Made by a program: the position numbers and the translations under genes. Below, one piece after another: positions 3,148 through 28,702 of a stretch of DNA of 64,000 bases. Origin of the DNA: an uncultured Solirubrobacterales bacterium (GTDB lineage Bacteria; Actinomycetota; Thermoleophilia; Solirubrobacterales; 70-9). How positions within the stretch are numbered: position 1 is the stretch's first letter; each line of letters starts with the position of its first letter. The notes below the pieces were generated by a model. The model was not told where the DNA came from. It ran no database searches and saw only the letters and a program-made list of their open reading frames with translations. The stretch spans positions 3,604-67,603 of the forward strand of contig CAVWYT010000012.1 of NCBI GenBank assembly GCA_963759295.1. The letters are read 5' to 3'.

Positions 3148-6100
3148 TCAGCGCACCCACCACTGGTCCACGCTTGAGCCGAACAGGAGGTTGCTCTTGA
3201 AGTTGCCGACGCGCTCGGAGACGAAGTCGTGGTGGACGCCGTTGGTGAGCGGCACGGCCGCCGCCTGCTCGATCACCCGCGAGTCCGCGGCCGCCCACAG
3301 CCGGCTCGCCTCGGCCGGCCGGCTGATCTGGAGGTCCTGCGCCTGACGGATCAGGGCGTCGAGACGAGCGTCACAGTAATGCCCGACGTTCGTGGTCGCC
3401 GGTGGCCGGCCGCACTTGAACAAGGGCAGGAAGAAGTTCGAGGCCGCCGGGTAGTCGGCGAACCACCCGAACGGTCCGATGTCACCATCATGTCGCGGGC
3501 GCGTGAGGCCGCGGAAGAACTTGTCGATGGGCTGGGATCGGAACGTTGGGCGGTAGCCGATCTCCCGCAGCGTGTTCACGACCACCTTCATGACGCCGGT
3601 GAAGGCCGGGTGACCGCTGAGCACCGTCACGCGCATGCCGCGCGTCCCCGACTCGCGGACCAGGCGTCGCGCCGTGGCGAGATCGGGCCGGTCGGGATAG
3701 GGGCACGGACCGGTTTCGTGGCCTGCCAGGTCCGGCGGGATGATCCGGCAGGTCAGCCGCGCCGCGTCCGCACCGCCCTGCGCGCGCAGCACGGCACGGC
3801 GATCCAGCGCGTAGCCCACGGCGCGCCTCGCGTCTAACCGGTTGAAGGGCGGGGAGTCGACGTTGAACCACACCCACTGCAGGCCCGCGGGAACGTAGGC
3901 GTGCAGCCGGTCGCCATGCCGCCTTCGAAGCTCCGGCAGCAGGTCGGTCGCCTGCGCGACCAGCGGGAGGTCGACGTGGTCGGCGGCCCCGGTGGCGACG
4001 GCGCGGACCGCGGCTTCCGCCCTGTCGGTCTTCATGTACTTGACGACGATGGCGTCGGGGAATCCGTCCGGTCGCGCGGCGGCTGACCAGACCTTGAAGT
4101 AGGGGTTCCGCTCGAGGCGGAAGCCGCCCTTCGGGTCCAATTCCGCGAGGCGGTACGGCCCGGTCCCCGGGAGCACCCGCCGCGCCGGTGGCTTGCCCGA
4201 CCCGCGCGGCACGACCGAGCCGAAGGACGTCGCGAGCTTGAAGAGGATCTCGGGGTCCGGTCGGCTCAGCTCGACGGTGACCGTGCCGGCCGCGTCGTCG
4301 GCCTCCGCCCGCCGCACGGTGTCGAGCACCTGGGTCGCGAGCACCCCGGGTCCAACGGCGCGGTTGAGGCTGTCCGCGACGTCGCTCGGCCGCATCGCGC
4401 GGCCGTCAGAGAACCGGATGTCGCGGCGGATCGTGAACGTGTAGGTCCGTCCCGCGTCGGACACCTCCGGCAGCGTCGCCGCCAGGTTGGGGACGACAGC
4501 ACCGTATGGCCCTGACCCGTCCCGGCGGAATGCCATCAGGCCGTCGCGTGTCGCGCTCGTCAACGTCGGGTCGCCGTAGCTGGCCGCCGGGTCGGTGTCG
4601 GTGCCAAACAAGGGCGTGTTGCCGAGGCCCAGCTGTCGCAGCGTGCCACCGCGATGGGCGGCGCCGCTGCGGGTCACCGCGATCCACAACGCGCCGTCGA
4701 CGGTCGCGAGTCCACGCGGTGGATTGCCGAGCTTGAGCTTGCGCGCGCGTCCCGGCGCGATCCGGGCGACGGTCGCGCCCTGCAGGTTGGCCACCCAGAC
4801 ACCGCCGGCGCCGACGGCGATCTCGGAGGGCGCGTCCTCTTTTCCGACGGGGACGGTGGCTGTCACCACCCCGCGCTCCGGGTCGATGCGCGACACGATG
4901 CCGGTCAGGGGATTCGTGACCCACACGCCGTCGCCGGCTGCCAGGGCGCCGGCGCCGACGCCCACGTCGATCGTGCGGACCGCACGTGCCGACGTCGAAT
5001 TGATCTGGACGACACGACCCTCGGCCTCACTGCTCGCCCAGACAGCGCCCTCCCCGCACGCCAGCCGGTCGGGCTGCACTTCAAGCCGCACTGGTTTCCG
5101 GCGCGTGCCGTCGGAAGCGACCCTGAGCACCCGACGCGCCGCGGGTGCGGCGATCCAAACCGAGCCGCCGGCCAGGCAAACGTCCGACGGCGCGCTGGCG
5201 AGCTTCATCGGACCAGTCACGACCTCGTTGGTCGAGGCGGCGATCTGCAGCAGCGTGCCGTCCTGCCGGTTCGCCACCCACACGCCGTCGCGATCGGCCG
5301 CCAGGGCGCTCGGGCCGTGGCCGACCTGAGATCGTCTGCCGGACCGTGTGCGTCTCGGGGTCCAGGCGGGAGACCGTGCCGCGATCGTCGTCCGACACCC
5401 AGATCGCCTCGCCAGCGGCCGCCACCCGGCCAGGCGTGCCCTCGATATCGACCTGCCCCTGCAGCTTCCCGCCGGGGTCGACGACCGCCACCGCGTTGCT
5501 GCCCAAAGCGACGAGGGTCGCGCCGTCGTCGCCCCGAAGCAGCATCGCGCCTAGAACGGCCAGGGCGGCGACGGCCAGCGCCACCAGCAGATGGCGGCGT
5601 GGCAGCGCCCGGCGCCTGATGGCCGGCGCGGGGCCGGACGTCGAGTGCGGTACGGGCGGCGTCGACCAGTGCGGTGCAGGTCGGCCAGCGCGCGCTGGGA
5701 TCTTTGGCGAGTGCGCGCTGGATGACGGCGTCGAGCGCGCGCGGTAGGTCCGGCACGCGCTCGCTCGGCGCGGGCGGCGGCGTCTCGAGGTGGCCGTAGA
5801 TGACCGCCGCCTCGTTGGCGCCCTCGTAGGGGACGCGGCCGGTGAGGCATTCATAGAGCACGCAGCCGAGCGCGTACTGATCCGCGGCAGCGGTCGGTTC
5901 CTCGCCGCGGATGACCTCCGGCGCCATGTAGAGGACGGTGCCCATGACCTGCCCGGTGCCCGTCAGCGAGTGCGAGCCGGCGGATTTCGTCAGGCCGAAG
6001 TCGGCAAGGTAGACGTGCTCACGCCCGCTCTCGCGAGCGATCAGCGCGTTGCTGGGCTTGACGTCGCGGTGGATGAGGCCGCGCTCGTGGGCGGCGTCCA

Positions 6101-13197: not shown

Positions 13198-13785
13198 TCA
13201 CGCCGCCGCGGCGTCCCTCGCCTGCGCGAACAGCTCGTCGGCGACCCGGTCGGCCGCGTCGCCGGTCCCGCCGAGCAGCCGCTTGGCGAGCTGCGCGCGG
13301 CGGAAGAACAGCGGCGCGTCGTGCTCCCAGGTCGCGCCGATCCCGCCGTGCACGGAGATCTGCGCGCGGGCGGCGTGGTCGTAGGCCTCGCTCGCGACGA
13401 GCCGGAACGCGGACGCCGCCACCGGCAGCTCCTCCGGCTTGTCGGCCGCCGCCCAGCCCGTGTAGTACATGAGCGAGCGGGCGTTCTCGAGCCGCCGCAG
13501 GATCTCGACCAGCTCGTGCTTGATCGCCTGGTAGGAGCCGATCGCGCGGCCGAACGTGAAACGCTCCTTGGCGTAGGCGACGCTCGTCTCGAGCGCCCGC
13601 TCGATCGCGCCGACCGCCTCGGCAGCCAGCAGCGCTTGCGCCACGTACCACGCGGTCGCGGCGGCCGACGGCGAGACGTCGAGCACCACGGCCGGGGCGT
13701 CGGAGAAGCGCACGTGGCCGAGCGAGCGGGTCGAGTCGTAGCCCTCGACCGCCTCGACCGAGGCGTCGGACGCCTGCTCGCCAAC
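13198..13785 (-). pseudogene. Acyl-CoA dehydrogenase, C-terminal fragment only (upper boundary approximate)
   Basis: The sequence reads ...DASVEAVEGYDSTRSLGHVRFSDAPAVVL...AEAVGAIERALETSVAYAKERFTFGRAIGSYQAIKHELVEI...AARAQISVHGGIGATWEHDAPLFFRRA. Only the middle-to-C-terminal part of an ACAD is present. No N-terminal domain exists upstream, because the sequence runs into a plus-strand YceI remnant. Confidence 0.7.
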
Positions 13786-14072
13786 ATCGAGCAGACGATC
13801 GACGACGAGGTGCTGAAGCGCCAGCGGATCGAATTCCGCTCGATCCGGTGGAGCCGCTCGGCGACGGTGGCCGGCTCGCGGTCGAGGGGGAGCTGACGCT
13901 CGTCGGCCGAACCAACCCGATCGCGTTCGAGCTCGAGGTCGGCGAGGACGGGGCCCTGAGCGCCGGCGCCGTGGTCACCCAGACGGCCTGGGGCATGAAG
14001 CCCTACTCGGCGCTGCTCGGCGCCCTCAAGGTCCAGGACGACGTCGAGGTCGGCCTCGACGGGCACCTCTAG
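13786..14072 (+). pseudogene. YceI-like polyisoprenoid-binding protein, C-terminal fragment with a frameshift (lower boundary approximate)
   Basis: ...IDDEVLKRQRIEFRSIR shifts near 13850 to EPLGDGGRLAVEGELTLVGRTNPIAFELEVGEDGALSAGAVVTQTAWGMKPYSALLGALKVQDDVEVGLDGHL*. This matches the YceI pattern F.S..v / G.LTl.G.t.pv. There is no N-terminus or signal peptide. Confidence 0.55.
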
Positions 14073-14076
14073 CGGC

Positions 14077-14514
14077 TCAGTCCCGGTACACGGCCTGCGC
14101 GTCCAGGCCGCCTTCGACGCCCGCCGGCAGCGGGCCGGTGCCGTGCGCGTAGAGCGCGATCTCCTCGATCGTCTTCACCCGCGCCGGGTCGCTGCCGTCG
14201 CCCGCGACCCAGGCGCCGTTGACCCACGAGAGAGTGTCCGGCTCGGCGTCCAGAGCGGCGCCCGCGAGCAGTCGCGCCTTCTCGCGGATCCGGCCGCTCG
14301 CGCTGGTGACCGCTGCGGTGGTCCCCTCGGAGGCGCTCGTGTTGTAGCCGTGCCCGACGCCGAAGCGGTCGGTGTCCGAGGGGACGACCTTGACATCGAG
14401 CGCCGGGACGCCGAGCGCTTGGGCGACGAGCTTCGCGTACTCGGCCTCCTTGCCGTCGGATTCGGTGGTCAGGCTCAGCACCATCTTGCCGGTCGGGTGA
14501 ACGCGCAGAAACAC
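14077..14514 (-). pseudogene. Internal fragment of a CoxL/xanthine-dehydrogenase-family molybdopterin subunit paralogue
   Basis: FLRVHPTGKMVLSLTTESDGKEAEYAKLVAQALGVPALDVKVVPSDTDRFGVGHGYNTSAS...GLDAQAVYRD* aligns by eye with CoxL residues LRLHPSGKAVVSISAQTQGQGHETTFAQIVAEELGIPPEDVEVRHGDTDRSPYGLGTYGSRS...GLDGQVIYDP of the intact gene at 18581-20971. About 145 of about 800 residues are retained, and conserved residues have degenerated. Confidence 0.75.
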
Positions 14515-14538
14515 CGCTCGATAGGCCTCGTTCCGCCA

Positions 14539-14724
14539 TCACTGATCCTCCTCGTCTTCGTCGGCTTTTGGCTCGGAGGCAAGGCGCTGACGCTCTTGGT
14601 GGGCGCTGAGCGCGTTGTGCTCCTCCAATTCGCAGAAGGCGGGCCGGGGTCCGCCGAGTGGATGTGGAGGCGCCGCCGGTCGGTCGCATCCCGGGTAGAT
14701 GCAGATGGCCTCTTCAGCCGTCAT
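14539..14724 (-). CDS. Small Cys-containing acidic protein, hypothetical (last ORF of the cox operon)
   Basis: The 61-aa product is MTAEEAICIYPGCDRPAAPPHPLGGPRPAFCELEEHNALSAHQ...DEDEEDQ. The start overlaps the coxE stop by 11 nt. GC3 is only moderate, so coding status is uncertain. Confidence 0.3.
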   Translation of the reverse strand: MTAEEAICIYPGCDRPAAPPHPLGGPRPAFCELEEHNALSAHQERQRLASEPKADEDEEDQ

Positions 14725-16117
14725 CGGTCACCCAACCCGGCGTCGTCTTGCCCCTGCTCGGCCCGTGGCCGCTCGGCATCGCAACCGAGCTGCCGGGCAC
14801 CGGCGTGGCGCTCGCCCAGGGCTCGTCGTCCTCGCCCTCCGAATCGGGGGTCGTCGCCCGAAGGCTTGGCGCCGTTGGATCCCCGAGCCCGCCCGGCGGC
14901 GCCCCAATCGCCTCGACGACCTCGCCCAGCGCCTCGTAGCTATGGCCGCTGACCAGGGCGTCGCAGTGCTCGAGGGCGGCGACCATCCCGCCGGCCCGAA
15001 CCGAGAACTCCCTCGCGCCGACCCGGGGGTTGACCCAGACGATCCGGTGAGCCAGGCGCGCGAGGCGCGCCATCTCGCGGCCGACGAGCGCCGGGTCGCC
15101 CCGCTCCCAGCCGTCGGAGAGGATCACGACGACGGCACCGCGGGCCATCCCGCGGCGGCCGTGGCGGTCGTTGAACTCCTTCAGCGCATCGCCGATTCGG
15201 GTTCCGCTGGACCAGTCCGGAGCCGTGGCCGCGGCACGCTGAATCGCCCACTCCGGCCGGCGGGAGGCGAGCGCCCGGGTGAGGCGAGTGAGCCGCGTGG
15301 CGAACACGAATGCCTCCGAGCGCCGGCCGCTCCCCGCCGCGCAGGTCAAGAACTGCAGGTAGGCGCGCGCGTAGGGCTCCATCGAGCCGGAGATGTCGCA
15401 CAGCAGCACGAGCCGGCGCGGGGCGATCCGCCGCCGCCGCCGAGCGAGCCGGATCGGGTCCCCTCCGCTGCGAAGGCTGGCCCGCAGGGTGCGGCGCACG
15501 TCGACGCGTCGGCCGTGGTGGGCATCCTCGAAGCGACGGGTGCGCCGCACGGGGGTCGCGAGCTCGAGGCGGGACATCAGCCGGTAGAGCCGGGCGAGCT
15601 CGTCGGGATCCAGAGCGTCGAAGCTCTTGCCGGCCAGCCGCTCCTCGTCGCTCGCAATCGCACGCGGGATGTCGACCGCCGCCCGATCCTCCTCGCCGTC
15701 GCGGGTCCGTGAGGGCGAGCTCGCCACGTTCGCGCGCCCGCCCTCTCGGGGCGACTCCGCGGAAGCGGGAGAGCGATCGGAGCTCGGCCGCTCGTCGGGC
15801 GGCGCGGCCGTGGTCGGGGCGTCATCGGGGCGCGGGCTCTCGGCCGCGGCGCCCCCGCCGAAGGTCGCCGCGAACACCGCGTCGAAGGCGGCGGCGTGGG
15901 CGCGATCGGAGACGAACATCGAGCGCGCGGTCCAGTAGAGGCGCCCGCGGCTTTCCGGGCGGACGAGCGTCAGCGCGCGGGCGAAATCCGCGGAGCGCTC
16001 GGGCGTCACCGGAACGCCCGCCTCGCGCAGGCGCTGGCCAAGCGTGCCGGCGAGCGGCGGCAGGTCGAGGTGGATCGTCTCGACCCCGAACGACCGCTCG
16101 GGGGCGCGCTCAGCCAC
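14714..16117 (-). CDS. coxE: CoxE-type VWA-domain CODH maturation protein
   Basis: The 467-aa product has a VWA/MIDAS motif LVLLCDISGSMEPYARAY, followed by VVILSDGWERGD and RIVWVNP. It sits immediately downstream of the MoxR-type coxD with an 8-nt overlap. Confidence 0.85.
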   Translation of the reverse strand: MAERAPERSFGVETIHLDLPPLAGTLGQRLREAGVPVTPERSADFARALTLVRPESRGRLYWTARSMFVSDRAHAAAFDAVFAATFGGGAAAESPRPDDAPTTAAPPDERPSSDRSPASAESPREGGRANVASSPSRTRDGEEDRAAVDIPRAIASDEERLAGKSFDALDPDELARLYRLMSRLELATPVRRTRRFEDAHHGRRVDVRRTLRASLRSGGDPIRLARRRRRIAPRRLVLLCDISGSMEPYARAYLQFLTCAAGSGRRSEAFVFATRLTRLTRALASRRPEWAIQRAAATAPDWSSGTRIGDALKEFNDRHGRRGMARGAVVVILSDGWERGDPALVGREMARLARLAHRIVWVNPRVGAREFSVRAGGMVAALEHCDALVSGHSYEALGEVVEAIGAPPGGLGDPTAPSLRATTPDSEGEDDEPWASATPVPGSSVAMPSGHGPSRGKTTPGWVTDDG

Positions 16118-17042
16118 GGCTGGACACGAGCCGGTCGAGGCCGGCCGCGCGGATCACCTGCTGATCCTCGTCGTACTTGAGCGCCGATCCGAGGGTGAGG
16201 TCGACCGCCTCGGCGTCGAGGGTCTCGATCCCGAGCACCTCGAGCGCGGCCAGCCAATCGATCGCCTCGGCGATCCCGGGAGGCTTCTGCACGTCGCTGT
16301 CGCGCATCTGCGAGACGGCGTCCGCGACCTGGACCGCGAGCGTCTCCGAGGCACCCTTGACCCGGCGGCGAACGATCTCCACCTCGCGCTCCGGCGTCGG
16401 ATAGTCGATCCAGCGGTAAAGGCACCGGCGCTTCACGGCGTCGTGCAGATCGCGGGTGCGGTTAGAGGTCAGGACGATGATCGGCGGGTGGGTGGCGCGG
16501 ATCGTGCCCAGCTCGGGGATCGTCACGCCGGCCCCCGCCAGCAGCTCGAGCAGGAACGCCTCGAAGTCGTCGTCGGCGCGATCGATCTCGTCGATCAGCA
16601 GCACCGCCGGGCGCGGGCCGGGATGCTCGAGCGCGCGCAGCAGCGGACGCCGGATCAGATACTCGGAGCCGAACAGCCGCTCCTCGTCCAGCGACTCTCC
16701 CCCCGATTCCGCGAGCCGGATGCTGAGCAGCTGCCGGGGGTAGTTCCACTCGTACAGCGCCTCCGCCGCGTCGATCCCCTCGTAGCACTGCAGCCGGATC
16801 AACGGCGTCTCGAGCACGGCCGCCAGCGCCAAGGCGGCCTCGGTCTTGCCGACGCCGGCCTCACCTTCGAGCAACAGCGGCTGCGGCAGCCGGAGGCTGA
16901 GGAACATCGACGTCGCCAGACCCTCGTCGACGAGATAGTCGACGGCGGCGAGCCGCCGGGCCAGGGTCTCGACGTCGGGAACGAGCCGGCGGATCTCCTC
17001 GGCCGCCTCGCCCATCACCTGCTCCGACTCGGCGCCGCTCAT
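16110..17042 (-). CDS. coxD: CoxD-type MoxR AAA+ ATPase (CODH maturation)
   Basis: The internal start MSGAESEQ overlaps the upstream stop as ATGA. Walker A is LLEGEAGVGKT and Walker B is VLLIDEIDRAD. The MoxR-like body includes IVLTSNRTRDLHDAVKRRCLY. Confidence 0.9.
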   Translation of the reverse strand: MSGAESEQVMGEAAEEIRRLVPDVETLARRLAAVDYLVDEGLATSMFLSLRLPQPLLLEGEAGVGKTEAALALAAVLETPLIRLQCYEGIDAAEALYEWNYPRQLLSIRLAESGGESLDEERLFGSEYLIRRPLLRALEHPGPRPAVLLIDEIDRADDDFEAFLLELLAGAGVTIPELGTIRATHPPIIVLTSNRTRDLHDAVKRRCLYRWIDYPTPEREVEIVRRRVKGASETLAVQVADAVSQMRDSDVQKPPGIAEAIDWLAALEVLGIETLDAEAVDLTLGSALKYDEDQQVIRAAGLDRLVSSRG

Positions 17043-17653
17043 CTGGGGGCCAGCTCGTCGAGCACGGCTCGGTAATCGTCGGGTGTGTCGACGTCGCGCG
17101 GGATCGGACCCGCGATCATCACCTCGGCTACCTCGTCGGGGCGCCCCTCGAGCAGCCGCCACACTCCCTTGTCGCCGTGGAGGTCGGCGAGCGCGCCGAA
17201 CACGCCGGGCGCGAACGCGATCGGGTGCCCCCTTCCGTCGTCGTAGCGACACACCGCGAGCGGCGCCTCGCCACGACCGGCCAGCAACGTCGCGACGGTC
17301 TCCGCGCTGACGCCCGGCTGGTCGCCGAGCATCAGGACCAGGACGTCGCAGCGCGGATCGACGACCGCGAGGGCCGCGGCGATCGACGACGAGCAGCCGA
17401 CCCCGTAGCCGCGGTTGACGACCACCTCCGTGCCATCGAGGTCGACGCCCTCGCGAACCTGCTCGGCAGCTCCCCCGATTGCCACGATCGTCTGCTCGAA
17501 GCGGCATTCGCGGGCGACGCCGACGACGTGACCGAGCAGCGTGCCGTCTCCGTAGTCGAGGAGCTGCTTCGGGCGCCCGAGGCGCTGCGAGCCGCCGGCC
17601 GCGAGCACCAGCCCGGTAACGAAGCGGTCGGGGTCAGCCGGCGAGCGAGGCAT
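17039..17653 (-). CDS. MobA/MocA-like nucleotidyltransferase (molybdenum cofactor cytidylyl/guanylyl-transferase family)
   Basis: The 204-aa product reads GLVLAAGGSQRLGRPKQLL...VLVLMLGDQPGVS...RGHPIAF. This is the NTP_transf_3 pattern typical of MCD-cofactor maturation genes in cox/xdh clusters. Confidence 0.85.
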   Translation of the reverse strand: MPRSPADPDRFVTGLVLAAGGSQRLGRPKQLLDYGDGTLLGHVVGVARECRFEQTIVAIGGAAEQVREGVDLDGTEVVVNRGYGVGCSSSIAAALAVVDPRCDVLVLMLGDQPGVSAETVATLLAGRGEAPLAVCRYDDGRGHPIAFAPGVFGALADLHGDKGVWRLLEGRPDEVAEVMIAGPIPRDVDTPDDYRAVLDELAPR

Positions 17654-18580
17654 GCTCTCCCTGCGCCTCGAACTCGGCCTTGCAGCCCTCGCTGCAGAAG
17701 TAGACGGTCTCGCCGTCGTTCTGCACCGAGGGAGTGCTCTGCACTGCCGCTACGGTCATCCCGCAGATCGGATCGATCGCCAGCGAGCCGGTGCCGGCCG
17801 TCGTGCGCCCCGTCGCCACCGCGGCGGCGGGCGCGGCTCGCCGAGCCGAGACGATCTTGGCGAGGATCGATACGGCGGTCTCGGCCGGGGTATGCGAGCC
17901 GATCGGGATACCCGCGGGGACGTCGATCCGCTCGAGCAGTGGATCGTCGACACCATCGACTCGCAGCTCGTCGAGCACGCCCGCGCCTCGCCGCTCGCTG
18001 GCGACGAGGCCGACGTAGGGCACGCCCGCCTCGAGGCCGCGGCGCAGCGCATGCAGCTCGTCGCGCCCGTGGGCGGCGACGACGAGTGCGAGATCGCCGC
18101 CGGCCGGCTCCGGATCGTGGCCGGCAGAGGAAACCATCTCGAGGTCGAGCTGCTCTCCGATCCGCACCAGGGCGTCGGCGATCGGCGTCTCACCCACGAC
18201 CAGGACTCGCGGCGGAGGCGGGGCCGGCTCGAGGAAGACCTCGATCGCCCCACCCGACAGGCACGGGTTCCTGACCGTGACCGACCCCTCCTCGCTCGCG
18301 ACCTCGGCGCCCTCGGGCCCCGCGTCGCCCGCCACCGGATCGGGCAGGATCCGCAGCAGAACCGGCTCGCCGCTCTCCAGCGCCGCCAGCGCGTACGCCT
18401 TCACGCTCTGCTCCGCGCAGACGCCGCCGACGAATCCCTCGAGCGTCCCGTCGCCGAGGACGAGAGCGACGCTCCCGGGCTGCACGCTCGTCGGGTGCTG
18501 CACCCGGACCACGGTCGCGGTCACGAACGGCTCGCGGGCGGCCGCCAGCTCCCGCGATCGCCGCGCCAGCTCCGAAGTGA

Positions 18581-18584
<4 letters not shown>
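17634..18584 (-). CDS. XdhC/CoxF/CoxI-family chaperone fused to a C-terminal YHS/TRASH metal-binding domain
   Basis: The start MITSELARR overlaps the coxL stop as ATGA. The XdhC_CoxI N-domain reads FVTATVVRVQHPTSVQPGSVALVL..G...G.VGG.C. The Rossmann-like C-domain reads VLVVGETPIADAL. The tail is IDPICGMTVAAVQSTPSVQNDGETVYFCSEGCKAEFEAQ, a YHS signature. Confidence 0.85.
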
Positions 18585-20967
<2,383 letters not shown>

Positions 20968-20971
<4 letters not shown>

Positions 20972-21447
20972 GCCTCCTGTCTCACGCCGGCCTCGTGCTC
21001 GGCTGCCCACCTGACGGCGGCGACGATGTTCTTGTAGCCCGTGCACCTGCAGATCGAACCCGAGATCGCCGTTCGGATCTCCTCCTCGCTGGGGTCAGGG
21101 TTCGAGTCCAGCAGCGCCCGCGCGGTCATCTGCATACCTGGCGTGCAGAAGCCGCACTGCAGCGCGTGGAGCTCGTGAAATCCCCGCTGGACCGGATCGA
21201 GCTCACCGTCGACCTCGAGCGACTCGACCGTCCGGATCTCGTGCCCGTCGCACATCGCCGCCAGCACCGTGCACGACTTCACCGGCCGGCCGTCCATCAA
21301 CACCACGCAGGCGCCGCAGTTGGAGGTGTCGCAGCCCCAGTGCGTGCCCTTCAGGCCGAGGGTCTCGCGAATGAAGTGGACGAGCAACAGGCGCGGCTCG
21401 ATCTCGCGGGAGACACGCTCGCCGTTGACCGTCATCGAGACGTCCAT
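20968..21447 (-). CDS. coxS: CO dehydrogenase small [2Fe-2S] subunit
   Basis: The 159-aa product has two [2Fe-2S] cysteine clusters, [11 protein letters not shown]...C and [10 protein letters not shown]...ICRCTGY. AGGAGG lies upstream. Confidence 0.95.
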
Positions 21448-21449
21448 GA

Positions 21450-22325
21450 TCAGGTCTCCTCCTTCAGGGCACGGGCCGTCGCGCGGCGCAGCGCTCGCCG
21501 GGTGAGCACACCGGCGAGGTGGCGCTTGTACTCGACCGGTCCGCGACCGTCGGCGCTCGGCGAGCAGTCGGCGGAGGCGATCTCTCCCGCCTCGGCGAAC
21601 AGCTCATCCGATGGCGACTTGCCGCGCAGCGTCTCCTCGGCCCGAGACAGGTGGACCGTCGTCATGCCGACGGCGCTGAGCGCGATCCCGGCGTCGGCGA
21701 TCGTGCCGCCATCGATCCAAACGGCCGCCGAAGCCGCGGCGATCGCCCAATCGCCGGCGCGGCGCTCGACCTTCTCGTGCGCGCTGCCCGCCCCGGGCCG
21801 CACCGGGACGCGGACCTCGGTCAGCAGCTCGCCGGCGCCGACCGCGGTCATGTAGGGGCCGATGTGGAAGTCCTCCATGCCGACCACCCGCTCGCCGTCG
21901 GCTCCGCGGATCACGACCCGAGCCTTGGCGGCCGAGCAGACGGCCGAGAGGTCCTCCGCCGCGTCGGCCTGGCAGAGAGAGCCGCCGATCGTGCCGCGGT
22001 TGCGGACGACGGGGTCGGCGATCACGGTCTCCGCGTCGGCGAACAGCGGCAGGCGCTCGGCGAGCAGCTCCGACTCGAGCAGATCAACGTGCCGTGTCAG
22101 CGCGCCGATCCTGACCTCGCCGTCGGCCTCGCGGATGTAGGAGAGCTCGGCGAGCTCGTTGATGTCGACGAGGTGCGAGGGACTCGCCAGTCGCAGCTTC
22201 ATCATCGGCAGCAGGCTGTGGCCACCGGCGATCACCCGGGCGCCCGAGCCGAGCCGCCCGAGCGCCTCGATCGCGCCCTCGACGCTCCTCGCGCGCTCGT
22301 AATCGAATGGCGCCGGCGTCTGCAA
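21450..22325 (-). CDS. coxM: CO dehydrogenase medium FAD-binding subunit
   Basis: The 291-aa product has an FAD_binding_5 pattern [18 protein letters not shown] and a CO_deh_flav_C tail. It uses a TTG start at 22323-22325, 3 nt after the upstream stop. Confidence 0.9.
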
Positions 22326-22328
22326 CCG

Positions 22329-22967
22329 CTACCCCTCTGGGCTCGAATCGCGGACCGGAAGCCGCCTGCGAGGCGCACCAACGTCCTCGCGCTGCTCGTA
22401 CTGGACGGGGGAATCGGTGCCGATCACCGGCGATCGCGGCAGGTTCGGTGGGCTCTCGTGACGGACGGACGGGTACAGCTCGCGCGCAGCCAGGCTGCCC
22501 CCCTCGACGTTCCTCAGCACCTCGCCCGGTGTCGGGCTGGCGGCGGCGATCGGCGCCTCGCGGCCGAGCCGCGCGAGGGTCAGCGTGCCCTTCGTGTAGA
22601 CCTCGCCGATCCGCGGCGGGATGACCTCGGTGCTGTCCGGGAAATTGCGCAATCCCGCCGCGGCGGCCCCGGGATACAGGCCTTCGATCAGGCCGACCGC
22701 GTCGCCGAGGCCCGCCTTCTTCACCAGCAGCCCCTCGAGCAGGTCGACGCCGGCGTCGAGTTGCTGGTTGATCGCGACCACGACGTCGTTGACCGGCGCG
22801 GTCTTGGAGACGATCTCACCGACTGCAGAGATCACCTCGTCGAGGCCCGCCGTGATCCTGCGCAGCGCGATGATCGTCGAGACGAGGTAGTAGACGAGCG
22901 CGAGCACGATCAGCACGACCGCGACGATCATCACCACCGCCGGCGCGACGACCCCGATGACGAGCAT
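22329..22967 (-). CDS. Membrane-anchored protein P4 (N-terminal TM + helical region + Pro-rich tail), unknown function
   Basis: The 212-aa product has a TM segment VVAPAVVMIVAVVLIVLALVYYLVSTIIAL, followed by RRITAGLDEVISAVGEIVSKTAPVNDVVVAINQQLDAGVDLLEGLL. It ends 3 nt before the coxM start. Confidence 0.6.
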   Translation of the reverse strand: MLVIGVVAPAVVMIVAVVLIVLALVYYLVSTIIALRRITAGLDEVISAVGEIVSKTAPVNDVVVAINQQLDAGVDLLEGLLVKKAGLGDAVGLIEGLYPGAAAAGLRNFPDSTEVIPPRIGEVYTKGTLTLARLGREAPIAAASPTPGEVLRNVEGGSLAARELYPSVRHESPPNLPRSPVIGTDSPVQYEQREDVGAPRRRLPVRDSSPEG

Positions 22968-22974
22968 GCTCGGG

Positions 22975-23241
22975 CTACTCCTTCTCCGCGTCGTCGACGA
23001 TCACGTCGAGCGAGCCGCCGTAGTCCGCGACTCCGGCGACCGTCTGCGCAACCTGCTCGCGGGTGGTCAGCAGCAGGGCCGTGGCGTCGAGGTCCTTCGA
23101 GCCCGCTCTTGCGACGCTCGCAATCGTCTCGACCGTGGGGACGATGCTCTGCGCCGCGGCGAGGACGCCACGAAGCAGATAGACGACCACGGGGAGGATC
23201 GCGACGAGCAGGACGATGCTCCCGATCCACCACAGGGTCAT
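22975..23241 (-). CDS. Small membrane protein P3 (TM + amphipathic helix), unknown function
   Basis: The 88-aa product is MTLWWIGSIVLLVAILPVVVYLLRGVLAAAQSIVPTVETIASVARAG.... The start overlaps the P2 stop as ATGA. Confidence 0.6.
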   Translation of the reverse strand: MTLWWIGSIVLLVAILPVVVYLLRGVLAAAQSIVPTVETIASVARAGSKDLDATALLLTTREQVAQTVAGVADYGGSLDVIVDDAEKE

Positions 23242-23807
23242 CGCGGCCTCCTCTCGGCGACGACCGCGGCCTTGCGCGCGATCCCCGGGAGCGCGGAGAG
23301 GATCACCTCGAACTGAGCGTTGATCGCCTTCACCGCGGGCTCGAGCGGACGCAGGTGCTGTGTCTCGACATCGCCAAGCGCGGTGGCGAGGGTCCCCAGG
23401 CCCTCCGAGATCGCCTCGAGGCCGCGGCGAATCAGGATCAGCGCGATCGCGAGCACCGCGACGACGACCAGAGCGAGCACGACGCTGAGCACGATCTGGA
23501 GGTCGGTGCTCATCGTCTGCGCCTGCTCGGAGAAGCCGTCGGTGAGCGCGTTCATGTAGCCGTCCTGGATCACGGCCTCGTCGACGATCTGGGCGAGGAC
23601 GGGCGCGGTCGCCTCGAGCTGCGGGATGTTCGCCGTGTTCGCGCCGACCTCACCGGCGATCTGAAGCAAGCCGTCGACCGAGCGCTTGATCCGGCCGACC
23701 TGCATCAGCAGCATCACCAACAGGGCCGCGACCACGAGCGCGGCGACCAGCCCGATGACCAACGCGATCGTCCAGTAGGTCGTGCCCGAGATCGCGACGA
23801 GGATCAT
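23238..23807 (-). CDS. Membrane protein P2 (two tandem TM + helix modules), unknown function
   Basis: The 189-aa product starts at the internal MILVAISGTTYW. TM1 is TIALVIGLVAALVVAALLVMLLM, followed by QVGRIKRSVDGLLQIAGEV. TM2 is IVLSVVLALVVVAVLAIALILI, followed by RRGLEAISEGLGTLATAL. The start overlaps the P1 stop as ATGA. Confidence 0.6.
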   Translation of the reverse strand: MILVAISGTTYWTIALVIGLVAALVVAALLVMLLMQVGRIKRSVDGLLQIAGEVGANTANIPQLEATAPVLAQIVDEAVIQDGYMNALTDGFSEQAQTMSTDLQIVLSVVLALVVVAVLAIALILIRRGLEAISEGLGTLATALGDVETQHLRPLEPAVKAINAQFEVILSALPGIARKAAVVAERRPR

Positions 23808-24061
23808 TTCCCGACCGCCACCTTTCGAAGAGCGCGAGCGGCGTGCAGGATCCTGATGCCCGAGTCGTTGATCCGCTCGATGCCGCCGAGCTCGGCGGTC
23901 TGCCGGCGCACCGCGCCGACCCCCTCCTCGGCGGTTCTCGCCTGACCGGCGATCCTCGTCGCCAGCGCCACGATCGTGATCACGATCACCGCGGCGACCG
24001 CGATCACGACAACTCCGAGGATGATCCCCACCACCCATCCGGTGGATGCCGCCGTCAGCAT
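23804..24061 (-). CDS. Small membrane protein P1 (TM + helix), unknown function; first gene of the cox operon
   Basis: The 85-aa product starts at the internal MLTAASTGWVVGIILGVVVIAVAAVIVITIVALATRIAGQARTAEEGVGAV.... The longer ORF-track start at 24142 adds an Arg/Gly-rich leader that is unlikely to be real. Confidence 0.55.
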   Translation of the reverse strand: MLTAASTGWVVGIILGVVVIAVAAVIVITIVALATRIAGQARTAEEGVGAVRRQTAELGGIERINDSGIRILHAARALRKVAVGK

Positions 24062-24203
24062 CGAGGGACCTCGAAGAGACCCGGGGAGACTGCGATCACC
24101 TGCTCCTGCTGCACTCCGCTCCTCCGCTGCCAACCCTAGCAACGATGTGCACCACGTCCCGGGCAGCGGTCGAGGGGCGTTAGCCTGAGAAACGGAGCAG
24201 CAC

Positions 24204-25358
24204 GTGAGCGCCTTGTCGAGTTCCGAGCGGACCGCGGTCGAGTGGCTGCGCCAGGGGCGGCGGGTCGTCAGCGCCGCGCTCGTCGACCGTATCGGCTCGG
24301 CGCCGCTCGACCCCGGGGCTCAGATGCTGATCGACGACCGCGGCAACATCGAGGGATCGGTGACCGGCGGCTGCGTGGAGGCCGCGCTCGTCGAGGAGGC
24401 GCAGCGGATCCTCGCCGGCGGCGAGGCCAGGGTCGTGACCTACGGCGTCTCCGACGAGGAGGCCCTCGGAGTCGGGCTCATGTGTGGGGGCACGGTCCGC
24501 GTGTTCGTGCACGAATACGACGAGGATGCGGTCGAGACGCTCGAGGCTGCGGCCGTCGCCCGCGCCGCCGACCGGCCGGTGGCCAGGGCCACGCTCCTCG
24601 ACGGAGATCGCGCCGGGGCCTCGATCTCGATCCTCGAAGACCGCGTTCTGGGCAGCCTCGGGATCGCCGACCTGCTCGATCGCTCGGTGGCGCGCGACGC
24701 GCGCGGACAGCTCGACGAGGGGGTTTCGCGCATCCGCCGCTACGGCGCGGGGGGCGAGGTGATGGGCTCCGAGCTGGCGGTCTACATTCAGGCGTTCGCG
24801 ACCCCGCCCCGGATGGTCATCTTCGGTGCGATCGACTTCTCCGCGGAGACGGCCAACGTCGCCGCCGACATCGGCTACAGGGTCACGATCTGCGATGCCC
24901 GCGAGCCGTTCGTCAAGAGCCCACGGTTCACGCGCAACGCGGAGGTCGTCGTCGACTGGCCCGACCGCTACCTGAGCGGGCAGGAGCTCGGGCCGCGCGA
25001 CGTGGTCCTGGTCTTCACCCACGATCCGAAGTTCGACGAGCCCGCGTTGACCGCCGCGCTGGCCACCGAGGTCGGATACATCGGCGCGCTCGGCAGTCGC
25101 CGCACCCAAGAACGACGGCTCGAGCGCCTGCGCGATGCCGGCCTCGACGAGCGGTCGATCGCCAGGCTCCACGCGCCCTGCGGGCTCGACGTCGGCGCCC
25201 GCACCCCGGCGGAGACCGCTGTCTCGATCCTCGCCGAGGTGATCGCCGTCCGCACCGGCCGCACGGGCGAGAGCCTGCGGGAGACGAGCGGCCCGATCCA
25301 TCCCGAGACCGCCTCACAGGAGGGCCGCTCGACGCCTGCCGCCGACGCGGTCGGCTGA
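24204..25358 (+). CDS. XdhC/CoxF-family molybdoenzyme maturation protein (divergent from the cox operon)
   Basis: The 384-aa product uses a GTG start with GGAG upstream. It reads ALVDRIGSAPLDPGAQMLIDDRGNIEGSVTGGCVEAALVEEA...MCGGTVRVFV, then MVIFGAIDFSAETANVA...YIGALGSRRT...LHAPCGLDVGARTPAETAVSILAEV. Confidence 0.9.
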   Translation: MSALSSSERTAVEWLRQGRRVVSAALVDRIGSAPLDPGAQMLIDDRGNIEGSVTGGCVEAALVEEAQRILAGGEARVVTYGVSDEEALGVGLMCGGTVRVFVHEYDEDAVETLEAAAVARAADRPVARATLLDGDRAGASISILEDRVLGSLGIADLLDRSVARDARGQLDEGVSRIRRYGAGGEVMGSELAVYIQAFATPPRMVIFGAIDFSAETANVAADIGYRVTICDAREPFVKSPRFTRNAEVVVDWPDRYLSGQELGPRDVVLVFTHDPKFDEPALTAALATEVGYIGALGSRRTQERRLERLRDAGLDERSIARLHAPCGLDVGARTPAETAVSILAEVIAVRTGRTGESLRETSGPIHPETASQEGRSTPAADAVG

Positions 25359-25417
25359 GCGAAACCTCGACCGGGCCGGGGCCGCAATTCTCGGGGGAGC
25401 TACCCGAAGCTCGATTC

Positions 25418-28400
25418 TCAGCCGAACAGTTCGGCCGGGGCCGCCTCGAGCGCGGCCTCGGTCGCCCGACGGCCCGCTTCGACCGCCGCGTCCATCTGGT
25501 GGAACTCGAGCAGGCCGACCCCGGGGGCGCGGGGCTCGATGACGAGGTTCGCGTACTTGCGCGAGGCCTGCGCGGTGTTGCTGCTCGCCAGCAAAAAGAG
25601 CCGGCCCAGGGTCTCGCCGAGCCCCGGCGGTGGGCGATCGGTGAAGCCGGCTGCGGCGACCTCGGGCAGGCCGTTTCCAGCCTCCTGATGCGTCCGAGAC
25701 GATGATCCGTTGCTGGCGCGGATGTCGACCGCGATCACGGGCCCCTCGCCGAGCTCCGCCATCGTCGCGACGGGGAGGTTGTCGATCAGGCCGCCGTCGA
25801 CGAGCAGCCGCTCGCCGCGGATCTGCGGCGGGGCAAGGACGGGCAGGCACATGCTGGTGCCGATGTGGTCCACCAGCCGCCCGTTGCGGTGGACGACCAA
25901 CTCGGAGCGGCGCAGATCGGCGCTCGCGCAAAAGAAGGAGCGCTCGATCTCCTCGAAGCGCACCTCCCCGAACACGCCCTGCAGCATCTCGAGGAAGCGC
26001 TGACCCCTGATCATCGCGTGGCGAGGGAACCGCCAGTCGTTGAGCGGGTAGCGGCGGACCCAGCTCTCATACGCGATCGCGTCGATCTCCTCGGGGTCGA
26101 GCCCCGCCGCGTAAAGACCGCCGAGGAATGCCCCCATGCTCACGCCCGCGACCCGATCGACGACGATCCCCGCCGCCTCGAGCTGCTCGATCACGCCGAT
26201 GTGCGCGAACGCCCTGGCGCCGCCGCCGGAGAGCACCAGCCCGACGGAACGACCGCAGAGCCGACGAGCCAACCTGCCGACGTCGGCGGCGCGGTCCTCG
26301 ACACGGAGCAGGTGATGCTCGATCGGCTCGAGCATCTCGACCAGCTCCGCAAGCGCCCCTGAGCCCTGCTGGACGTCGCAGGCCACGAGATCGGCCCCGT
26401 GCAGCGCCGGATCGATCTCACCGTCGATCGCGTCGCCCGGTCCCGCGATCACGAGGATGCGGTCCGCCTGCTGGACGCAGAACCGCCGCCAGTCCGGCGA
26501 GGAATCGGGCCCCACCGGCAGGACGACGACACCTGCCTCGGCCTCGGCACGATCGAGATGCGGTCCGAACGCCGCCACGTCCCCGTCCCCGCCGCGAGTG
26601 TGGGCCTCGGGCAGGCGGGCGGCGGGCGCGAACTGGCGCAGGGATTCGGTCAGGTCGGCGGCCAGTTCGTCGGCCCGATCGGCGTCGCCCAGGGCGAGGA
26701 GCGTGATCGTTGCGGCCACCGGCCGGGCTGCGAACTTGACGCCCTCCGACTCCGCCAGTTGCCGCGCGAGCTGCAGGTTCAAGGCCCGCGAGAGCTCGAG
26801 CGAGGAATCGAGCAGGCGCTGGAAGCTCCGCTCTCCGATCTCGACCAGCTCACAGTCACGCGCTGCCCTGATCGAGGCGGCACGCGGCTCACCGGTGATC
26901 AGCGCCAGCTCGCCGAGTGCCGCGCCCCTGCCCAGCTCGCGAAACACCTCTCCGTCCTGATCGACGATCTCGATTCGGCCCGCCCGGACCACGTACATGG
27001 CGTCGCCCGCATCACCCTCCTTGAACAGCCAGTCGCCGGCCGGGAGCCGGATCTCGTTCGCCGTTGCGGCGACCTCCTCCAGCAGGCTCGAGTCCAGGGT
27101 CGAAAACAGTGGCACCCGGGCGAGGAAGTCGGCCAGCGACTCGTGGATCGGGCCGGCGTCGCCCGGCTGCACGGACAGCGGCAGCTCGGCGACCGGGGCG
27201 GCCTTGGCCTGGAAGCTGCTCACGTGGGGTGGGGCGAGCGCGACCCGCATCGCGTCGGCCAGCGCCGGTACCCGCGCCGCCGCCTGCGCCGGACTGACCC
27301 CGCCCATGGCGAGGCCGCCGATGCCGGCGGTGAGCAGGCAACCGGCGGCGAACAGCCAGGCGTCGTCGAACGCCGCCACGGCGTCCTCGAGGGTCTCGGG
27401 AGTGCCGAGGATGGCGACCACCATCGCGACGCCGACCGCAGCTCCAACCTGACGTACGACCGAGGAAACGCCGGTCGCGGTCGCGAAGCTCTCACCCGGC
27501 GCCGAAGCGACGGCCGCGGAGCTCACGTTCGGGAAGGTGATCCCGGCGCCGAGGCCGAGGAGGATCACCCCCGGCAGCCATTCCGCCAGGTACGCGGGCT
27601 CGGGCCCGACCCTCAGAACCAGCCACATCACCCCGCCGGCCCAGATCAGTCCCCCGATCGCGACCACCGGCCGGTAGCCGATCCGCAGCGCGAGCCGGCT
27701 GAAAGGCCCGGCGATCGCGGCGGCGACGAACGGGCCGGGCGTGATCGCGAGGCCGGCCTGCAGGACCGTGTAATCCCACACGCCGGTGAGGAAGAGGACG
27801 TTGAGCAGCGTGTAGCCGAAGAAGCCGGCGGCGCCGATCACGCTGACTGCGTTGGCGACCGAGAAGGTCCGGTTGGCGAACAGCCGAGTGTCAACGACCG
27901 GCGCCCGGTGCCGTCGCGACCTGGCGACGAACGCCGCCAGGCAGAGCGCCGACACGCTGACGCAGGCGATCACGCCGGCGGAGGTCCAACCCCAGTCGCC
28001 GCCGTTGACGATCGCGACCACGAGGATCGCCACGGCGAACGCAAACAGCGCCGCGCCGGGCATATCCGGAAGCCGCCTGCGTCCCGCCTCGCGGCTCTCG
28101 ACCAGCTCCCGAGAGGCGAGCACGTACGCCGCGGCTCCGATCGGCAGGTTGATCACGAACACGAGCCGCCAGTCGGCGAGCGCGATCAAGAAACCACCGA
28201 TCGCGGGGCCGAGCCCGGCCGCGAGGGCGCCGATCGCGGAGATCAGCGCCACCGCGTGCGAGCGCTGCTCGACCTCGAAGCCGTGCAGCACCAGCGCCAG
28301 CCCGGCGGGGACCATCGCGGCGGCCCCGAGTGCCTGGATGACGCGGAAGGCGACCAGCACCTCGACCGACCAGGAGGTCGCGCACAGCAGGGACCCGAGG

Positions 28401-28702
28401 CCGAAGACCGCGAGTCCAACCAAAAAGACCCGCTTGCGGCCGATGACGTCGGCGAGTCGCCCGAACGGAAGCAGGAACGCCGCGAAGACGACGTTGTAGC
28501 CGTTGAGAATCCAGGAGAGCCCGCCGATGCTGGTTTCCGGGAACGACCGGGCAATGTCGGGAAAGGCGATATTGACGATCGTCGCGTCGAGAAATGCGAG
28601 AAAGAAACCGAGCGACGCGATCCCCAGGACCGATCGCGATGACGGCACCGAGCGCGCGCGCAGGCTGCGACGCTCGATTGCGGATCCCCCGGTTTGGGTC
28701 AT
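25418..28702 (-). CDS. Tri-domain protein: 14-TM MFS (DHA2-like) transporter + cyclic-nucleotide-binding domain + patatin-like phospholipase (NTE-like)
   Basis: The 1094-aa ORF is intact. The MFS N-half reads LDATIVNIAFPDIA...GRLADVIGRKRVF. The cNMP domain reads FKEGDAGDAMYVVRAGRIEIV...GRGAALGELALITGEPRAASIRA. The patatin domain has GLVLSGGGARAFAHIG (oxyanion), GVSMGA (GxSxG) and LVDGGLIDNLPV (catalytic Asp). Confidence 0.9.
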   Translation of the reverse strand: MTQTGGSAIERRSLRARSVPSSRSVLGIASLGFFLAFLDATIVNIAFPDIARSFPETSIGGLSWILNGYNVVFAAFLLPFGRLADVIGRKRVFLVGLAVFGLGSLLCATSWSVEVLVAFRVIQALGAAAMVPAGLALVLHGFEVEQRSHAVALISAIGALAAGLGPAIGGFLIALADWRLVFVINLPIGAAAYVLASRELVESREAGRRRLPDMPGAALFAFAVAILVVAIVNGGDWGWTSAGVIACVSVSALCLAAFVARSRRHRAPVVDTRLFANRTFSVANAVSVIGAAGFFGYTLLNVLFLTGVWDYTVLQAGLAITPGPFVAAAIAGPFSRLALRIGYRPVVAIGGLIWAGGVMWLVLRVGPEPAYLAEWLPGVILLGLGAGITFPNVSSAAVASAPGESFATATGVSSVVRQVGAAVGVAMVVAILGTPETLEDAVAAFDDAWLFAAGCLLTAGIGGLAMGGVSPAQAAARVPALADAMRVALAPPHVSSFQAKAAPVAELPLSVQPGDAGPIHESLADFLARVPLFSTLDSSLLEEVAATANEIRLPAGDWLFKEGDAGDAMYVVRAGRIEIVDQDGEVFRELGRGAALGELALITGEPRAASIRAARDCELVEIGERSFQRLLDSSLELSRALNLQLARQLAESEGVKFAARPVAATITLLALGDADRADELAADLTESLRQFAPAARLPEAHTRGGDGDVAAFGPHLDRAEAEAGVVVLPVGPDSSPDWRRFCVQQADRILVIAGPGDAIDGEIDPALHGADLVACDVQQGSGALAELVEMLEPIEHHLLRVEDRAADVGRLARRLCGRSVGLVLSGGGARAFAHIGVIEQLEAAGIVVDRVAGVSMGAFLGGLYAAGLDPEEIDAIAYESWVRRYPLNDWRFPRHAMIRGQRFLEMLQGVFGEVRFEEIERSFFCASADLRRSELVVHRNGRLVDHIGTSMCLPVLAPPQIRGERLLVDGGLIDNLPVATMAELGEGPVIAVDIRASNGSSSRTHQEAGNGLPEVAAAGFTDRPPPGLGETLGRLFLLASSNTAQASRKYANLVIEPRAPGVGLLEFHQMDAAVEAGRRATEAALEAAPAELFG

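Follow-up and report, generated by a model that had tools for sequence, protein, structure and literature searches.

The hand-over of electrons from soluble, high-affinity carbon monoxide dehydrogenase (CODH) and hydrogenase to the membrane is a partly solved problem, with CoxG in mycobacteria and HucM in the hydrogenase Huc as the worked cases. The HucM stalk of Mycobacterium smegmatis Huc, from what Grinter et al. reportedly found in 2023, is a single protein that forms a homo-oligomeric, helical, membrane-associated scaffold linking the enzyme to menaquinone. Mycobacterial CoxG extracts menaquinone and hands it to the molybdenum enzyme (Mo-CODH), and has a C-terminal transmembrane (TM) helix (Kropp et al., PMC12202499). 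Among [NiFe]-hydrogenases, five small TM protein genes placed between hydS and hydL are the published hallmark of group 1l, in which the proteins are named HylTM1-5 (bioRxiv 10.1101/2020.08.06.239558; PMC9561532), and a published AlphaFold model arranges HylTM1-5 into tube-shaped scaffolds by which the hydrogenase is anchored to the membrane (PMC13554262). Group 1m clusters have been described with adjacent hydS and hydL genes and small single-TM proteins of 82-92 aa (PMC9561532). Here we report a 64,000-nucleotide stretch (hereafter the window) of contig CAVWYT010000012.1 from an uncultured Solirubrobacterales bacterium, in which four small membrane protein genes, P1, P2, P3 and P4, directly precede coxMSL, the structural genes of a form I Mo-Cu CODH. 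P2 consists of two modules, P2a and P2b. The HylTM cassette and the group 1m small TM proteins are already published, and it is the link of such proteins to Mo-CODH that is new: a full-text literature search found no paper tying such small TM proteins to Mo-CODH, and a 2026 survey of Mo-CODH gene contexts considers coxG alone.

By profile homology, P1-P4 represent, in its CODH-linked form from Thermoleophilia, a cassette of five bitopic membrane proteins, and the set in the window is a variant of the published hydrogenase-associated cassette joined to Mo-CODH and not a CODH-specific invention. A P2a profile matched 27 of 400 sampled Actinomycetota genomes, the window's own included, and the 20 weaker, non-Thermoleophilia matches were fetched as loci. 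Fourteen of these have hydS and/or hydL within the stretch, three have CooC-type ATPases alone nearby, two are form I cox clusters and one is an orphan. Loci L105, L109 and L110 share a layout of hydS, five overlapping small TM genes and hydL, and L115 begins with the same hydS-TM layout before its contig ends. Other loci (L099-L101, L104 and L106-L108) have adjacent hydS and hydL, with CooC-type ATPases and divergent small single-TM genes nearby, and carry clear homologues of P1, P2a and P2b, at E-values from ~1e-7 (P1) to 1e-18 (P2a); these three were the cassette member types found in group 1m-like loci.

Five hidden Markov models (HMMs) built solely from the Thermoleophilia CODH-linked families match the hydrogenase-cluster proteins in collinear order. 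At L113 the E-values are 4e-14 for P1, 3e-13 for P2a, 2e-9 for P2b, 4e-10 for P3 and 2e-16 for P4. At L109 the HMMs pair TM1 with P1, TM2 with P2a, TM4 with P3 and TM5 with P4, and across L105, L109, L110 and L115 the same pairs score E ~1e-7, ~1e-14, ~1e-5 and ~1e-7, respectively. TM3 is linked to P2b solely via 1m-type intermediates (38-40% identity, E 1e-15). Profile-profile comparison with hhalign gave probabilities of 98.3-99.4% on the diagonal, which is partly built in because the hydrogenase-side groups were assigned by best HMM; gene order provides independent support. The collinear homologues in [NiFe]-hydrogenase clusters therefore point to a hydrogenase-type membrane cassette attached to Mo-CODH. 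In the window the cassette precedes coxM and does not lie between hydrogenase small and large subunit genes. The sole [NiFe]-hydrogenase large-subunit gene of the window genome is on another contig, and a P2a profile search found no second cassette copy in that genome. This large-subunit gene, on contig C6 of the window genome (G000; 25661-27437; L119/L120), is present in two pieces abutting at ~26533, the result of a frameshift or assembly error; its product is 38-44% identical to the 1m-like HydL of L108.

One or two CooC-type P-loop ATPase genes lie beside the hydrogenase-linked cassettes of L103 and L105-L115, and such ATPases also occur in three loci without a hydrogenase gene in the fetched stretch. 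Since accessory genes adjoin the cassettes in both settings, XdhC-family genes in cox clusters and CooC-type ATPases in hydrogenase clusters, the five proteins might be imagined as a maturation or assembly factor, a membrane-proximal platform for insertion of Mo/Cu into CODH or of Ni into hydrogenase that takes no part in the working enzyme. We consider this improbable. Its location among or immediately before the structural subunit genes, with translational coupling to coxM, suits stoichiometric partners better than catalytic helpers. Furthermore, the proteins have no metal-binding motifs, Cys and His are scarce in all five module families, and the cofactors and maturation pathways of CODH and hydrogenase are unrelated.

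Linkage of the cassette to form I CODH was assessed in a panel of 40 relatives, searched for P4 and for form I-type coxL, intact or frameshift-split. P4 was found in 14 and coxL in 15, and all 14 P4 genomes are among those 15; in the fifteenth, coxL starts at base 2 of the contig and the upstream DNA is absent. The other 25 relatives, which have no form I coxL, all lack P4. The order P1-P2(a,b)-P3-P4-coxM was seen in 14 of 14 loci initially fetched, 11 from relatives and three from contig look-ups. A scan of one genome per species yielded at least 460 genomes with a P2a relative, and locus statistics were taken from the best 80, all Thermoleophilia (Solirubrobacterales, Thermoleophilaceae, Gaiellales, Miltoncostaeaceae and Conexibacteraceae), including one metagenome-assembled genome labelled 'Acidobacteriota' that is probably mis-binned. 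In all 80 of these the P1-P2a-P2b-P3-P4 order is fixed. Of the 78 loci whose contig runs on past the cassette, 77 have cox genes after it, and in most cases -1 to +30 nt lie between the P4 stop and the coxM start. Among 83 sampled Actinomycetota with form I CoxL above the cut-off, the cassette lies near that coxL in nine, comprising all seven Thermoleophilia plus the genomes G417 and G247. An earlier note on this DNA, made from its letters, had proposed a survey of synteny; across the 80 species genomes and the 40 relatives, the cassette, where present, is indeed kept beside form I cox genes. Genome G031 has on contig C9 (294257-302598) a pair of form I coxL genes that each exceed the TIGR02416 cut-off and are ~6 kb apart; the cassette precedes the first of them, and the space between the two holds coxG and a CoxL-fragment gene.

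Purifying selection and codon composition show P1, P2, P3 and P4 to be real genes and not chance open reading frames (ORFs). GC content at third codon positions is 0.87-0.95, compared to 0.92 for coxM, and the ratio of nonsynonymous to synonymous substitution is 0.13-0.35 against six relatives. There is one TM segment each in P1, P3 and P4 and one per module in P2, and every module opens with a strongly hydrophobic helix (mean Kyte-Doolittle 2.7-3.4 across 19 residues) followed by Arg/Lys. In P1, the N-terminal TM helix and Arg lead into a helix closing in a conserved INDSG(I/V)RILH(A/S)ARALRK motif. P2a has a conserved ANTANIPQLEATAPVL loop and a short helix bearing an invariant QDGYMNALTDG motif, and P3 is conserved at its N-terminal MTLWWIG and C-terminal YGGSLDVIVDDA. 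The earlier note's description of the genes, including their positions, their junctions and this TM-helix-then-Arg/Lys architecture, agreed with what we found throughout. Its suggestion that all the modules share one ancestry, to be judged by HMM-HMM comparison, held within two paralogue classes, A (P1, P2a and P3) and B (P2b and P4), and hhalign scores between the classes were weak; a single paralogue family for all five modules is therefore at most partly borne out.

No protein of the set matches Pfam or NCBIfam above threshold, and the hydrogenase-linked homologues gave sub-threshold matches alone. This accords with the earlier note, which had recognized the set as neither CoxB, CoxC, CoxH or CoxK nor CoxG; the COXG domain (PF06240) has no match in P1-P4. 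A P4 profile run against 1.84 billion representative proteins found 505 clusters at E<=1e-3, of which 105 reach E<=1e-30, and a P2 search of a 5.8-billion-protein set returned at least 479 relatives, the named ones mostly annotated as 'hypothetical protein'. Against PDB sequences, the P4 profile matched no chain at E<=1, HucM included. Sub-threshold DUF6755 matches occur in 15 of 72 P4 homologues, and sub-threshold DUF948 matches in 43 of the 72 (best E 0.0022) and in two hydrogenase-linked members. The DUF948 matches, together with orphan cassette copies located apart from enzyme genes, would suit general membrane or stress proteins, that is, DUF948-like bitopic coiled-coil proteins, induced in starvation alongside trace-gas enzymes, that protect or remodel the membrane without contacting CODH. 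However, no member reaches the DUF948 cut-off of 37.2 bits, the members shown scoring 12-17 bits and P4 itself 12.3 bits. The confinement of P4 to relatives with form I coxL, the interposition of cassette genes between hydS and hydL elsewhere, and the conserved P4 extension, specific to the Thermoleophilia CODH-linked set, likewise argue against such a role, which we regard as quite unlikely.

The same scans found no MHYT, HAMP, sensor, kinase or DNA-binding domain in P1-P4. The earlier note had raised the possibility of a sensing module, that is, a device that responds to CO, redox or quinone state and regulates cox expression or activity. Apart from the cassette's membrane location and its place at the head of the operon, nothing favors it: there is no regulator partner in the loci examined, the external parts are just a few residues long, and the same cassette serves enzymes of differing substrates. 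With no sensory or output domain to work through, we rejected this idea, which is highly improbable.

The earlier note counted four proteins, which is correct for the window; elsewhere the cassette normally comprises five genes, P1, P2a, P2b, P3 and P4. P2 is two genes in 90 of 93 other loci, encoding P2a of ~104-113 aa and P2b of ~90 aa, and is fused in three of the 93, two of which are the same contig. The fusion junction in the window (23480-23560, minus strand) is in frame, with a short linker, DGFSEQAQT-MSTD, and P2 retains the P2b ATG in frame at residue 99 (23511-23513). Several P2 'fusions' in the databases hold frameshift-type garbage. An assembly artefact is therefore possible for the P2 of the window, as is a real but rare variant.

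Judging from their spacing, P1-P4 are translationally coupled to one another and to form I coxMSL. The P1/P2 and P2/P3 junctions are ATGA overlaps (23804-23807 and 23238-23241), the P3/P4 junction is a 7-nt gap (22968-22974), and the P4 stop, ending at 22329, is separated by 3 nt from the coxM TTG start at 22325. A GAGG lies ~9 nt 5' of the P1 ATG. A consensus scan of 18000-25500 found no promoter-like (sigma-70) or intrinsic terminator site; the earlier note had named a promoter or terminator between P4 and coxM as a finding that would speak against its proposal, and none was seen. An Rfam scan of 21300-24400 gave no real match. A score of 1213 bits for CoxL against TIGR02416 (cut-off 991), together with its active-site loop AYXCSFR in the form AYRCSFR, identifies the enzyme as form I Mo-Cu CODH.

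The distribution of charge around the hydrophobic helices provides a prediction of topology, a check that the earlier note had suggested. In all five families, Lys plus Arg amounts to 0.1-0.9 in the N-terminal flank compared to 1.7-2.7 in the 15 residues after the helix. Under the positive-inside rule, this bias predicts for all five modules an outside N-terminus and an inside C-terminus (N-out/C-in), with long helical parts in the cytoplasm, where CODH is located. Models were made with AlphaFold2 (AF2) as monomers from family alignments. In P4, a single helix spans residues 2-85, with block-mean pLDDT of 85-98 from residue 11, and a short helix extends to residue 97; from about residue 120 to residue 212 the confidence is low. 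In P2, a helix at residues 8-58 is followed by a loop, a helix at 71-84, a low-confidence linker and a single 86-residue P2b helix, in which the TM segment continues into the cytoplasmic extension. Helix packing cannot be read from these models given their pTM of 0.37-0.38.

Across 72 sequences, the C-terminal extension of P4 shows high conservation and has dozens of invariant positions, among them R119, I120, E122, Y124, T125, G135, R136, E137, A138, P139 and Y190. It is absent from the hydrogenase-linked TM5 (93 aa) and from the P4 of G417 (78 aa), being confined to the Thermoleophilia CODH-linked set. A segment that is conserved yet not confidently folded is typical of one that orders on a partner, and we infer that the extension is a candidate adaptor, or enzyme-docking part, connecting the Thermoleophilia cassette to CODH.

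In most relatives, a coxG gene (PF06240) is located in the cox cluster, 3' of the CoxL-fragment gene, and in G003, G013 and G021 it lies directly upstream of P1. Replacement of CoxG by the cassette was therefore rejected. Measurement of the CoxG tails refined that idea to replacement of the CoxG tail. All 10 Thermoleophilia cluster CoxG proteins are 132-145 aa in length, end 3-6 residues past the domain and lack a hydrophobic segment. In contrast, the five complete cluster CoxG proteins of cassette-less Actinomycetota (the sixth is cut by a contig end) all continue into an Ala/Pro-rich linker of 49-180 aa that leads to a hydrophobic or amphipathic end, the linker and membrane-tail form seen in M. 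smegmatis CoxG (PMC12202499). Presence of the cassette is thus accompanied in Thermoleophilia by loss of the CoxG membrane tail, a contrast that is suggestive but represents one evolutionary event.

The window genome differs from its relatives in that no bona fide CoxG was found in the 91%-complete assembly. Its sole PF06240 hit (22.5 bits, contig C6) scores better as a generic Polyketide_cyc2 SRPBCC protein. In the window, an acyl-CoA dehydrogenase C-terminal fragment is found beyond the CoxL-fragment gene (13198-14066, minus strand), where relatives have the tail-less coxG, and the cox operon adjoins gene fragments at its distal end. A cassette without CoxG could be taken to couple quinone itself, the five helices forming a hydrophobic tube, like the HucM stalk, that lifts menaquinone from the bilayer to the enzyme's electron exit site. 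The long amphipathic helices, rich in Ile, Val, Ala and Gly, that extend from the TM segments would suit such a conduit, and direct transfer to the quinone pool has been suggested from the tube-like model of HylTM1-5 (PMC13554262). Nevertheless, retention of the CoxG quinone-binding domain in the clusters of most relatives argues against the cassette carrying quinone, the P4 profile finds no HucM or other PDB chain at the threshold given above, and monomer models cannot reveal a lumen. A conduit of this kind is, in our view, unlikely.

Given these features, we slightly favor the view that the cassette serves as a hetero-oligomeric membrane dock or stalk for CODH, with tail-less CoxG beside it. 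Its basis lies in what was observed, namely gene anatomy, conservation, synteny, homology, the joint occurrence with form I coxL and the difference in CoxG tails, and the homology matters because the same role has been proposed for the small TM proteins of [NiFe]-hydrogenases. The topology, the bundling, the binding of CODH and the part played in electron or quinone transfer are what we infer from them. A single transcript would serve for translation of the five modules together with CoxM, CoxS and CoxL, and each module would insert with the N-terminus facing outward, leaving the C-terminus in the cytoplasm. The long cytoplasmic helices may then bundle into a hetero-oligomeric stalk that holds soluble CoxMSL at the inner face of the membrane, such that electrons from CO reach menaquinone, with the P4 C-terminal extension as the likely enzyme contact. 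In relatives, tail-less CoxG, with its quinone-binding SRPBCC domain, probably works alongside the cassette, which would supply the tether given in mycobacteria by CoxG's own linker and TM helix. The earlier note had offered an alternative membrane anchor or quinone-coupling scaffold; hydrogenase homology makes an anchor or scaffold the best supported of the roles considered, whereas 'alternative' does not apply with respect to CoxG, since relatives carry coxG.

A second type of CODH linkage is found in G417 and G247, which belong to two other actinobacterial families. Here the order is coxM-coxS-coxL(AYRCSFR)-coxF-coxG-P3-P4-P1-P2a-P2b, with the small genes overlapping. In a P2a tree, unrooted and from a short alignment, the Thermoleophilia copies form one clan (support 93/96), and the G417 and G247 copies are placed among the hydrogenase-linked ones. 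This nesting is consistent with at least two recruitments to CODH. A broader proposal would make the cassette an enzyme-agnostic, exchangeable module providing a membrane dock and quinone access to soluble trace-gas oxidoreductases, which moved at least twice from hydrogenase clusters to Mo-CODH, gained the P4 extension as a CODH adaptor and took over tethering from the CoxG tail in Thermoleophilia. We put this forward tentatively, as possible though rather doubtful.

Several observations weigh against a CODH dock. It is important to point out that the Thermoleophilia genomes are kin, so that the co-occurrence counts are not independent events, and the linkage is strong within one clade. Even in this clade, other genes occupy 5.6 kb between P4 and coxM in G039 and 2.3 kb in G335, and at L070 the cassette follows coxE and a CoxL-fragment gene and is itself followed by a hydantoinase-like gene. 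Cassette copies with no enzyme genes in the fetched stretch exist, namely the second and third copies in G035 and L116. The cluster CoxG proteins of G417 and G247 keep an amphipathic tail of 54-57 aa with no TM helix, making the tail contrast less than absolute. On the structural side, bundling and enzyme contact would lie outside what monomer AF2 models of such pTM can address, and the P2 fusion is hard to reconcile with an all-parallel N-out/C-in arrangement unless translation of P2b begins at its own ATG or the assembly is wrong at the fusion. In addition, the membrane role of HylTM is itself solely predicted. The 1l and 1m assignments made here rest on gene layout, and the link to HylTM1-5, whose reference proteins are those of Hymenobacter roseosalivarius, runs via actinobacterial loci of the published layout.

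The insert in G039 (L122, contig C91, 10750-16330) contains a truncated-haemoglobin-like ORF at 14463-14837, and that in G335 (L123, contig C97, 5050-7400) a MoaD/MoaE-like ORF at 5152-5817, both recognized by eye. The second cassette copy of G035 (L124, contig C3, 1774-3249) has five genes, and the third (L125, contig C1, 3942-4755) has P1, P2a and P2b alone; neither has cox or hydrogenase genes in 8 kb.

Coordinates of the cassette and its neighbors are collected in Table 1. The divergent arrangement of the XdhC-family gene is found in 11 of 80 related loci. The CoxL-fragment ORF aligns to a middle segment of CoxL alone (TIGR02416 positions ~477-620) and is found at the same distal position in the cox clusters of 13 relatives, a recurrence that marks it as a small protein under conservation rather than debris. 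A 1094-aa ORF (25418-28702, minus strand), located two genes upstream of the cassette, opens with hydrophobic segments like those of a major facilitator superfamily transporter and has a GxSxG patatin-like end, judged by eye from the ORF list.

Table 1. Cassette and cox genes of the window, in window coordinates
Feature	Position	Strand	Description
P1	23804..24061	-	85 aa, class-A module; counterpart of hydrogenase-cluster TM1
P2	23238-23807	-	189 aa, two modules (P2a + P2b)
P2a module	23514..23807	-	P2 residues 1-98, class A; counterpart of TM2
P2b module	23238..23513	-	P2 residues 99-189, class B; counterpart of TM3
P3	22975..23241	-	88 aa, class-A module; counterpart of TM4
Whole P4	22329-22967	-	212 aa
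P4 N-terminal part	22677..22967	-	Residues 1-97, class-B module; counterpart of TM5
P4 C-terminal extension	22329..22676	-	Residues 98-212 plus stop
P1/xdhC-like intergenic region	24062..24203	.	142 bp, divergent; presumed promoter region of P1-P4-coxMSL operon
XdhC/CoxI-family accessory gene	24204..25358	+	Transcribed divergently from P1
coxM, FAD-binding subunit	21450..22325	-	TTG start
coxS, [2Fe-2S] subunit	20968..21447	-	
coxL, form I Mo-Cu CODH large subunit	18581..20971	-	TIGR02416 and AYRCSFR
Downstream maturation genes	14077..18584	-	XdhC::YHS (coxF-like), MobA-like, coxD-like MoxR-type AAA, coxE-like VWA, CoxL-fragment
CoxL-fragment gene (MoCoBD_2)	14077-14514	-	Stand-alone 145-aa ORF, distal end of cox operon

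The occurrence of one homologous five-protein cassette with both [NiFe]-hydrogenase and Mo-Cu CODH points to a shared modular docking solution, and in Thermoleophilia, a dominant soil class, the cassette accompanies tail-less CoxG. If the broader proposal of an exchangeable dock module is true, the cassette would be the missing physical link by which oxidation of atmospheric CO or H2 is joined to respiration in soil Actinomycetota that include some of the most abundant. The proposed complex of P1-P4 and CoxMSL, with or without CoxG, would bear on the annotation of thousands of soil genomes, where such genes are called 'hypothetical', and on models of atmospheric CO and H2 uptake.

Among known systems, CoxB, CoxC, CoxH and CoxK of Oligotropha (Afipia) carboxidovorans are larger polytopic membrane proteins, CoxC and CoxH with MHYT-type sensor repeats. 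They resemble P1-P4 in being membrane proteins encoded in a cox cluster, whereas P1-P4 are built of single-pass modules and lack MHYT. Pfam DUF948, a family of mostly Gram-positive bitopic coiled-coil proteins, similarly has an N-terminal TM helix followed by helical segments, but its gathering score is unmet, and we know of no link between DUF948 and CODH or hydrogenase. The HucM stalk may be similar in its working, as a helical membrane scaffold for a soluble trace-gas enzyme; it differs in being a homo-oligomer of one protein and not a set of five bitopic proteins, and in giving no match to the P4 profile. Also alike in working is the CoxG linker and TM helix of M. smegmatis (PMC12202499), which tethers the CODH electron-transfer machinery to the membrane, although it has no sequence relationship to the cassette and CoxG itself is a quinone carrier of SRPBCC type. 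Group 1m small TM proteins are homologous to P1, P2a and P2b, but are of three types and accompany hydrogenase instead of CODH. Closest is HylTM1-5 of group 1l. Unlike that system, the cassette in the window has Mo-Cu CODH and not hydrogenase as its partner, is located upstream of coxM and not between structural genes, carries in P4 a conserved extension of ~115 residues absent from TM5, and belongs to a CODH-linked type with which a CoxG domain protein co-occurs. Similar to HylTM1-5, the cassette comprises five tandem overlapping genes, encoding proteins of ~80-110 aa in collinear order, each with a single N-terminal TM helix, after which come Arg/Lys and long helices. Profile matches connect TM1, TM2, TM4 and TM5 in the hydS-TM-hydL loci, and TM3 via 1m-type intermediates, and in both cases the partner is a soluble, oxygen-tolerant trace-gas oxidoreductase without a membrane subunit of its own.

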